Of a DNA stretch of 64,000 nt, positions 33,304-34,509 are shown one piece after another. Position 1 is the stretch's first letter; every line of letters starts with the position of its first letter. Source of the stretch: Methanobacteriota archaeon (GTDB lineage Archaea; Halobacteriota; Bog-38; Methanoflorentales; Methanoflorentaceae); NCBI GenBank assembly GCA_963719035.1, contig CAVRAO010000002.1, forward strand, positions 752,198 to 816,197. Direction: 5' to 3'. The translations under genes were made by a program, and so were the position numbers. The notes beneath the pieces were generated by a model that ran no database searches, had not been told where the DNA came from, and saw only the letters and a program-made list of their open reading frames with translations.

Positions 33304-34509
33304 TAGTGTAGGTGATGTGGTAGTGTAAGTTGGTTATTAGTATTGGTAGTTTTGTTTTACGGTTTGGTGTTACGGTTAGTTTGTTTAGTTTGATGATAGT
33401 GTGTATGGTAGTGTGCTGATGTTGGTAAGGTGTATTTAGTTGGTGGTGGGGTATAAGAAGTTTCAGTATAGTTTGTTGTTGAGAGTGATGAGTGGTGGTG
33501 TGTTGATGGGGATGAGTTTGGTAGTGTTGATGTTGGTTTTTGTGTTTTAGTAGGTGATTTGTAATGTGTTTGGTTTTGTGTTGGTTGAATTTTGGAATGG
33601 TATATTGATGATGTTTGTTTTTTTATGGTTTGTTTTTTGGTAATGGAATTTTTAGATTGGTATGTTTGTTAGGGGAGTATTATTATTGGTAGGTAGTAGT
33701 TTAGGTGGGTGTATAGATTTGGTGGGTGTGTGTGGTAGAAGGGGGGTGTTTTGTTTAGAGGAGTGGTGTTGTTATGTGATGTATATGATTGGGTTGTTTC
33801 AGTATATGTTGTTTATTGATTGGTGAGTTGATTTGAAGGATATTTGTGTTGTTTTTTTAGTATGTTGTGTGATAATATTTATGTTATATTTGTGTGTTGG
33901 TGTATGGTAATAGTAGGATAGGATTATTGTTTTTTTGATATTTGTAGTAAATTGATTATTAGTAAGTTGGTTATTGGAATGGAGGGGGGTTTTATGTATG
34001 GTAGAGAAGATGAGTAAGTGGTTTGGGTGAATGATTTGTTGGATTGTGTTGTAGTGTTATTGATTTTTTAAGAGTGGGGGTTTATGTAAGTTGTTGTTGT
34101 TGAGTATATAGGTGTTAGTAATGTGTTTGTTTATTGTTATTTTAGTTTTAGATAGTGGTTATGTTGTGAGATGGTTTTGTAGTTGGTGTGTTTGTTGGTG
34201 TTTTTGGTGTTTGTATTGTTGTAAGTTGTTGATTATGAGTTGATGTTTGAGTGTGTGTGTTTGTAAGTTGTGTATGATTTTTTTAGTATGAGTTAGGTTG
34301 ATATTGTTGTGATAGTGTTTGGTGTATTTTAATGGTAAGAGTATGTATGAGATGAGGACGTTTGGTAAGAGGGTTATTATGTATTGTTTTTGTGAGTTTT
34401 ATTTTGAGATTTATAGTGAGGAGTGATGATGTTGAGTAAATATATGGAAGAGGTTATAGAGGTAGTGTGTTAGTGAGAGTAGATAGATATGTGGAGTGGT
34501 GTTAGAGTG
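33304..34509 (+). other. Cytosine-depleted tract (apparent strand-specific C-to-T conversion of GC-rich DNA)
   Basis: Only 6 C in ~1.2 kb (33360, 33373, 33416, 33464, 33800, 34359), G still roughly one third of bases, non-repetitive; C returns abruptly at 34510. Confidence 0.9.

Follow-up and report, generated by a model that had tools for sequence, protein, structure and literature searches.

A cytosine-depleted block at the left end of a foreign insert in an archaeal assembly: a C-to-T converted gene, probably carried by one uncorrected long read

How does a stretch of 1206 nt come to be written almost without cytosine on one strand of an archaeal genome, and does that genome really inherit it? 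The window that we analysed, 64,000 nt in length, is the last 64 kb of contig C2 in an assembly of 2.19 Mb and 13 contigs, whose host is archaeal (SSU rRNA, 1582 bits with the archaeal model) and whose GC content is about 49%. Between 33304 and 34509 its plus strand holds 241 A, 6 C, 396 G and 563 T, a recount that bears out the initial annotation, in which only six C, about one third of G and an excess of T had been seen. The six remaining C stand at 33360, 33373, 33416, 33464, 33800 and 34359, and they sit in recurring local words (TTACGGTT twice, GTTTCAGTATA twice). The number of C per 100 nt stays at 0-2 throughout the block and rises to 24-40 from 34501 on. The G of the block is not depleted, since its share of 32.8% matches the 32.6% of the neighbouring GC-rich element; the C share of that element is about 34.5%, so that some 400 C would be expected in the block, and overall about 98% of the plus-strand C are written as T. 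On one strand, G is kept, C is lost and T is gained, with no matching disturbance of A or G. Directly upstream of the block lies a run of 189 A (33115-33303), which was absent from the initial annotation.

The features that bear on the nature of the block are the following:

33304-34509, plus strand: C-depleted block, left end of the GC-rich element (base counts, Markov fit, period-3 signal, protein match)
33994-34485, plus strand: gene of an HTH (Cro/C1-type) regulator inside the block (alignment to residues 1-164 of P0021)
34515-35090, plus strand: ORF continuing the product of the P0021-like HTH gene past the block boundary (match of the C-terminal end of P0021)

In three-letter composition the source nearest to the block (A.200, G.328, C+T.472) is the plus strand of the GC-rich element (A.185, G.326, C+T.489), and Markov models of order 2-4, trained on C-to-T-converted sources, favour this strand over host DNA. 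The block carries a period-3 signal (z=4.0, equalled by 1 of 500 shuffles), weaker than that of converted genes of the element (z 10.5-11.9). When its frame 1 was translated with the stops as X and compared by phmmer with 1.84 billion representative proteins, exactly one protein matched: P0020, of 118 aa, with an E value of 1.4e-17 and the domains HTH_3 (PF01381) and HTH_31 (PF13560). Its cluster mate P0021 (204 aa), which a contig of 1,768 nt encodes, aligns by residues 1-164, with no gap, to the codons of 33994-34485. Among these 164 codons, 71 are identical, 70 are explained by C-to-T changes and 23 are otherwise different. The larger classes of C-to-T changes are A>V (22), Q>stop (9), R>Cys (7), P>L (7) and H>Y (6), and the smaller ones P>F (4), R>stop (4), L>F (3), S>F (3), R>W (2), T>M (2) and T>I (1). 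Identical or compatible codons thus number 141 of 164, against a mean of 21.7 (sd 4.1, maximum 35) for 2000 shuffles of P0021. The first 110 codons fit in 102 cases (93%), and the closeness to P0021 is about equal in the unconverted part of the gene (28 of 30 residues, counted by eye). The 492 nt of the alignment are free of frame shifts and their A, G and T calls are correct.

These results confirm that the block is a strand-specific C-to-T version of a genuine coding sequence, as the initial annotation had proposed: the C-restored homology and the coding signal sought there were both found, with G untouched, the homology to an unconverted relative being scored at the protein level. The search for an unconverted parent in three-letter space, also proposed there, gave a protein relative (P0020/P0021) and no DNA parent: blastn with C=T on both strands of the assembly's own genome returned the block itself only, and three-letter tblastx against nine loci that hold relatives of the element's primase gave noise only (positive control, 150 bits). 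These nine loci have only the primase gene in common with the element; they were the DNA of relatives that the search of metagenome contigs gave, and the searches of genome contigs and viral contigs gave none. No Pfam family was detected in the block (six frames, stops as X), and no gene was identified in its upstream 690 nt (33304-33993).

The regulator gene does not end with the block. At its start the unconverted ORF reads like the C-terminal end of P0021 (VTDAVRDLTRHYEA...), and one base seems to have been lost near 34486; a single gene spans the boundary, and the block is therefore the left end of the GC-rich element and contiguous with it, the place that the initial annotation had assigned to it. 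Read against P0021, the last codons that need a C-to-T change lie at 34500-34505 and the first kept C beyond the block is 34510. The switch from converted to unconverted DNA consequently spans at most 7 nt, and the recovery of C at 34510 is as abrupt as had been described.

What kind of process would leave such a trace? Counted over the codon cases, the 5' neighbour of the converted C is G in 22, C in 11, A in 3 and T in 3, and CpG is found among the converted cases too (13 in Arg codons). APOBEC/AID-like hypermutation does not fit the block: no 5' preference of the TC/CC or WRC type is present, and the conversion is about 98% rather than partial. APOBEC/AID hypermutation and the bacterial DNA deaminase toxins (DddA, SsdA-like) produce clustered and strand-coordinated C-to-T changes on exposed single strands, and the known cases are partial and context-biased. 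The block differs from them by its near-complete conversion behind all four 5' neighbours and in CpG. It is like the reads of bisulfite or enzymatic (APOBEC-based) libraries, in which about 98-99% of the C of one strand become T in every context, G is untouched and few C are left. It is unlike such reads in that only 1.2 kb of an 8.1-kb molecule are converted, with a sharp edge and with unconverted host flanks, and nothing suggests that such a library was made here.

The initial annotation had ascribed the conversion to the deamination of a single-stranded 1.2-kb end of the element that was then copied; if this took place within the cell, the change would be fixed on both strands and inherited. 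This explanation would account for a near-complete, strand-specific conversion placed at an element end with a boundary of at most 7 nt, for the conversion behind all four 5' neighbours, as by a context-blind deaminase or bisulfite, and for the clean reading frame, which suggests real T or U. On the other hand, the 13 stops created within 164 codons would destroy the regulator gene, which makes it unlikely that such a copy is handed on as a lineage. One molecule at most is in evidence, the opposite strand is without support for A, the contigs of four other sequencing runs leave the block uncovered, and the run of 189 A and the error-ridden state of the insert, both taken up below, find no explanation in it. 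We hold an inherited deamination of this kind to be highly improbable.

The surroundings of the block bear on whether the archaeon owns this DNA:

32815-33114, plus strand: N-terminal part (100 aa) of the host O-methyltransferase gene (Pfam Dimerisation domain, E 1.4e-9)
33115-33303, no strand: run of 189 A, left junction of the insert (base count)
34510-41436, plus strand: unconverted rest of the GC-rich element, about 67% GC (composition, ORFs, X1 short-read contigs)
41437-42108, plus strand: C-terminal part of the host O-methyltransferase gene, no base lost (Pfam Methyltransf_2, orthologue alignment)

In the unbroken orthologues L002 and L003, from two genomes of the same genus, SPLYLG is directly followed by KERFQED at the corresponding place. 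The 8.3 kb in between are therefore a loss-free insert in the O-methyltransferase gene, composed in order of the 189 A, the block and 6.9 kb of DNA of 67% GC. At most AA/AAA is common to both junctions, and up to the first three A of the run may be the host's own AAA. The two halves of the host gene are in frame with each other, unlike the pieces of the broken primase/helicase gene of the element, and the host sequence resumes at the very next base behind the insert, which is not what the junction of a random chimera would look like.

The element itself encodes, behind the regulator gene:

35218-37623, plus strand: primase/helicase gene (D5_N, NrS-1-like HBD) in at least five frame pieces (extra A in X1 contigs where the frame changes)
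37998-38836, plus strand: serine recombinase (resolvase domain and start of the Recombinase domain), probably with one frameshift (Pfam, phrog)
38839-40835, plus strand: DNA-binding ORF (small-terminase-like position) and terminase-large-subunit-like pieces (phrog_19906, phrog_7579, phrog_27743)

The primase/helicase gene is split into these pieces, at least five, over 2.4 kb. The serine recombinase, whose end at 38836 was read by eye, matches Pfam Resolvase (E 7.5e-33) and the phrog_95 integrase (E 5.1e-50). DNA matches in a phage collection are confined to primase genes of actinobacterial phages (53 records, 70-76% identity over 95-173 nt), and the nearest proteins to the element's primase are metagenome proteins, 58-64% identical. 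By its gene set the element would be phage-satellite- or plasmid-like, and we take it to resemble phage-inducible chromosomal-island-like satellites or small integrative elements: it measures about 8 kb and combines an HTH regulator with primase/helicase, recombinase and terminase-like genes. It is unlike such satellites in the serine type of its recombinase, in that no helper phage or host is known for it, and in that it lies, foreign in its base composition, within a gene of an archaeon.

Such a gene set invites the idea of a real integration, by which the element's own serine recombinase would have inserted a circular copy at a pseudo-attachment site in the chromosome of a few archaeal cells, the A run and the C-to-T change being added later, technically or by deamination of an exposed strand. 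A loss-free insert without target duplication is the pattern expected of serine recombinases, and no host base is lost or duplicated here beyond the possible AA/AAA at the junctions. Site-specific integration of a circular element, unlike a random chimera, would yield a loss-free insert of unit length, and the element encodes a serine recombinase. Furthermore, the gene set looks whole, the length of about 8.1 kb comes near the 8,417 nt of the contig on which P0020 is encoded, and the depths of element and host are similar in run X1. Against an integration stand the actinophage-like genes and the 67% GC in an archaeon of 49% GC, the homopolymer that abuts one junction precisely and has a counterpart at a further junk locus, the unpolished state of the insert, and the empty site found in three of the four runs compared. 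No terminal repeat, direct or inverted, joins the ends of the element in three-letter space; this absence of att-like repeats is a weak argument, as serine systems need none. On balance a real integration, which we keep as the main rival of our preferred reading, appears distinctly unlikely to us.

Of the words sampled from 32500-42000, at most 7% occur in any one public run. The contigs of four runs (X1, X2, X6 and X7) were compared with 33304-42000, and the site is empty in three of them: in X2, X6 and X7 the first matched position of the contigs is 41437, and the overhanging ends carry the sequence of the left host flank (...CCCGTTGTACCTCGGC). The X1 contigs match the element over about 850 nt in six pieces, with one other letter in all, and they hold an extra A behind 36399 and an extra C behind 41385; the window has therefore indel errors at these two places. 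One X1 contig leaves the element at 41434 and continues for 63 letters that disagree with the host flank, which is consistent with a free or circular form of the element in the X1 sample. The depths of the X1 contigs, 2-4.4 for the element and 2.2 for the host flank, are weak evidence, as contig depths are. The block is uncovered by the contigs of all four runs, and contigs cannot show absence. That the change was fixed in vivo in the archaeal genome is not supported, given the missing insert in three of four runs, the indels of the kind left by a single read, the run of 189 A and the junk loci elsewhere in the assembly; most likely the archaeon does not inherit the block.

Runs of at least 70 nt free of one base occur at three loci of the 2.19-Mb assembly, namely the block, a stretch on contig C6 and a run on contig C12. 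At C12:106267-106400 (G000, locus L018), 116 A and then 18 G stand between two host flanks, the only homopolymer of at least 15 nt in the genome besides the 189 A. In the same-genus genomes G004 and G010 these flanks are about 1.4 kb apart, and the C12 run is likely to be read junk that replaces real sequence. At C6:209068-209854 (G000, locus L019), there are 787 nt of C/T-rich low-complexity sequence (25 A, 88 G); behind them the 109 nt that precede the stretch are repeated exactly, and normal sequence follows. This looks like a fault of a read that the assembly retained. The possibility that the C6 stretch is a two-letter projection of nearby sequence was rejected on comparison. Both loci are low-complexity noise, unlike the clean one-letter conversion of the block. 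Contig C4:17639-28801 is a second copy, 96.8% identical and located at the contig end, of the 11.2 kb at window 20000-31150, so that the region has strain variants (or a haplotig). Taken together, the junk on C6 and C12 and the second copy on C4 point to an assembly backbone that was drawn from raw long reads and still contains local faults.

Could the conversion itself be a pure reading fault, in which T was written for C over about 1.2 kb of normal DNA after a stall, a block or a fusion of reads? The first letter of the block directly follows a homopolymer, and a similar one marks a second junk locus; the boundary of the block is abrupt, and its kept C recur in the same words, as from a context-driven caller. 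Pyrimidine-pyrimidine confusion is also a common type of nanopore substitution according to PMC8486125, which does not describe the pattern seen here. On the other hand, the A, G and T calls and their spacing are accurate enough for the reading frame to hold over 164 codons, of which the first 110 are compatible with the relative in 93% of cases, A and G are not disturbed in a matching way, and the junk on C6 and C12 is noise and not a one-letter conversion. Because the frame is clean and the A, G and T calls are correct in the block, real U or T is favoured over a noisy misread, and we consider a pure reading fault rather unlikely.

The reading that we prefer, with a probability of about 0.6, is that the insert stems from a single long read, uncorrected and probably chimeric, which the assembler retained, and that the conversion is a property of that strand. 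We infer the single-read origin, the chimerism and the physical cause of the conversion, the first of these from one trait, the error density. The insert has the quality of a single read (the frame pieces and the indels relative to X1), it is unsupported in the runs with an empty site, it has junk at its junction in the form of 189 A, and two further junk loci are found in the same assembly. The assembler would have taken one long read as backbone without being able to polish it, and the 8.3-kb insert would lie outside the heritable genome of the archaeon. The sequenced strand would really have carried U or T in the block, a step that we rank above a base-calling fault: the exposed 5' part of the molecule would have been deaminated by a process specific for single strands, and library repair may have tidied U to T. 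A base-calling fault that starts with the stall that gave the A run would be the less likely cause. It counts against the preferred reading that a clean 98% C-to-T block is not known to us as the product of any library step or base-calling fault, and the literature that was searched describes no clean kilobase-scale block of this kind in long-read assemblies, which is no proof of absence.

The main difficulty for a chimeric read is that the host sequence goes on without losing a base. Nanopore reads that were fused or interrupted, as described for BulkVis in PMC6596899, are similar in this respect, as they can resume at the same reference position after an abnormal current or an unblock, and the assembly has junk at such places. 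They are dissimilar in that PMC6596899 describes no other molecule read in between and no base conversion.

As to the origin of U or T in the preferred reading, slow spontaneous deamination by ageing of single-stranded DNA was tried and rejected on the about 850 nt of the element that differ from the X1 contigs by one other letter. Judged by rate constants, the double-stranded part should then show changes of a few percent. Spontaneous ageing is unlikely because this double-stranded remainder is unchanged relative to the X1 contigs.

Could the sequenced strand rather be a native molecule that bears, over its exposed 5' 1.2 kb, a deaminase footprint, left by a defence or toxin enzyme that acts on the cytosines of single-stranded DNA regardless of context, the double-stranded rest of this small mobile element being spared? 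In its boldest form, this possibility would mean that the enzyme acted on DNA that was entering, or integrating into, an archaeal chromosome across domains. We regard such a footprint as very doubtful. If the strand was truly deaminated, the block would offer a rare single-molecule view of near-complete, context-blind deamination of exposed DNA in nature. If the insert is an artefact, a deposited genome that represents its species carries 8.3 kb of foreign, partly converted DNA that splits a real gene; masking of the insert would then be called for, and a scan for long stretches that lack one of the four bases can reveal similar loci. In addition, the way in which the converted gene was identified, by reading through the stops, searching with the protein and scoring the mismatches for C-to-T compatibility, can be used again on other converted DNA.

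Elsewhere in the window, the G-rich stretches 1-2500 and 6750-10000 were considered as rRNA and rejected, being minus-strand genes of Ig-like surface proteins. Several genes of surface proteins with Ig-like and CarboxypepD_reg repeats lie on the minus strand at 7124-10181, and the plus-strand excess of G in this region is due to them and not to a base conversion. A 688-nt repeat at 31144-31830 is also present on contig C10 at 93.6% identity. On the minus strand, 31534-31872 holds an ORF of 112 aa with a signal-like N-terminus and a Cys/Thr/Pro-rich stretch (…SCCCCPCPVTCPTACPTTACC…). The plus-strand ORF 28546-29250 ends in ...GLPGFEAVYAVAGLVAVAYLALRRRK, which we take to resemble an archaeal PGF-type C-terminal sorting signal. 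Finally, 21936-22105 and 22957-23129 form a pair of inverted repeats of about 172 nt and about 90% identity, some 850 nt apart, which is found in the C4 copy too.
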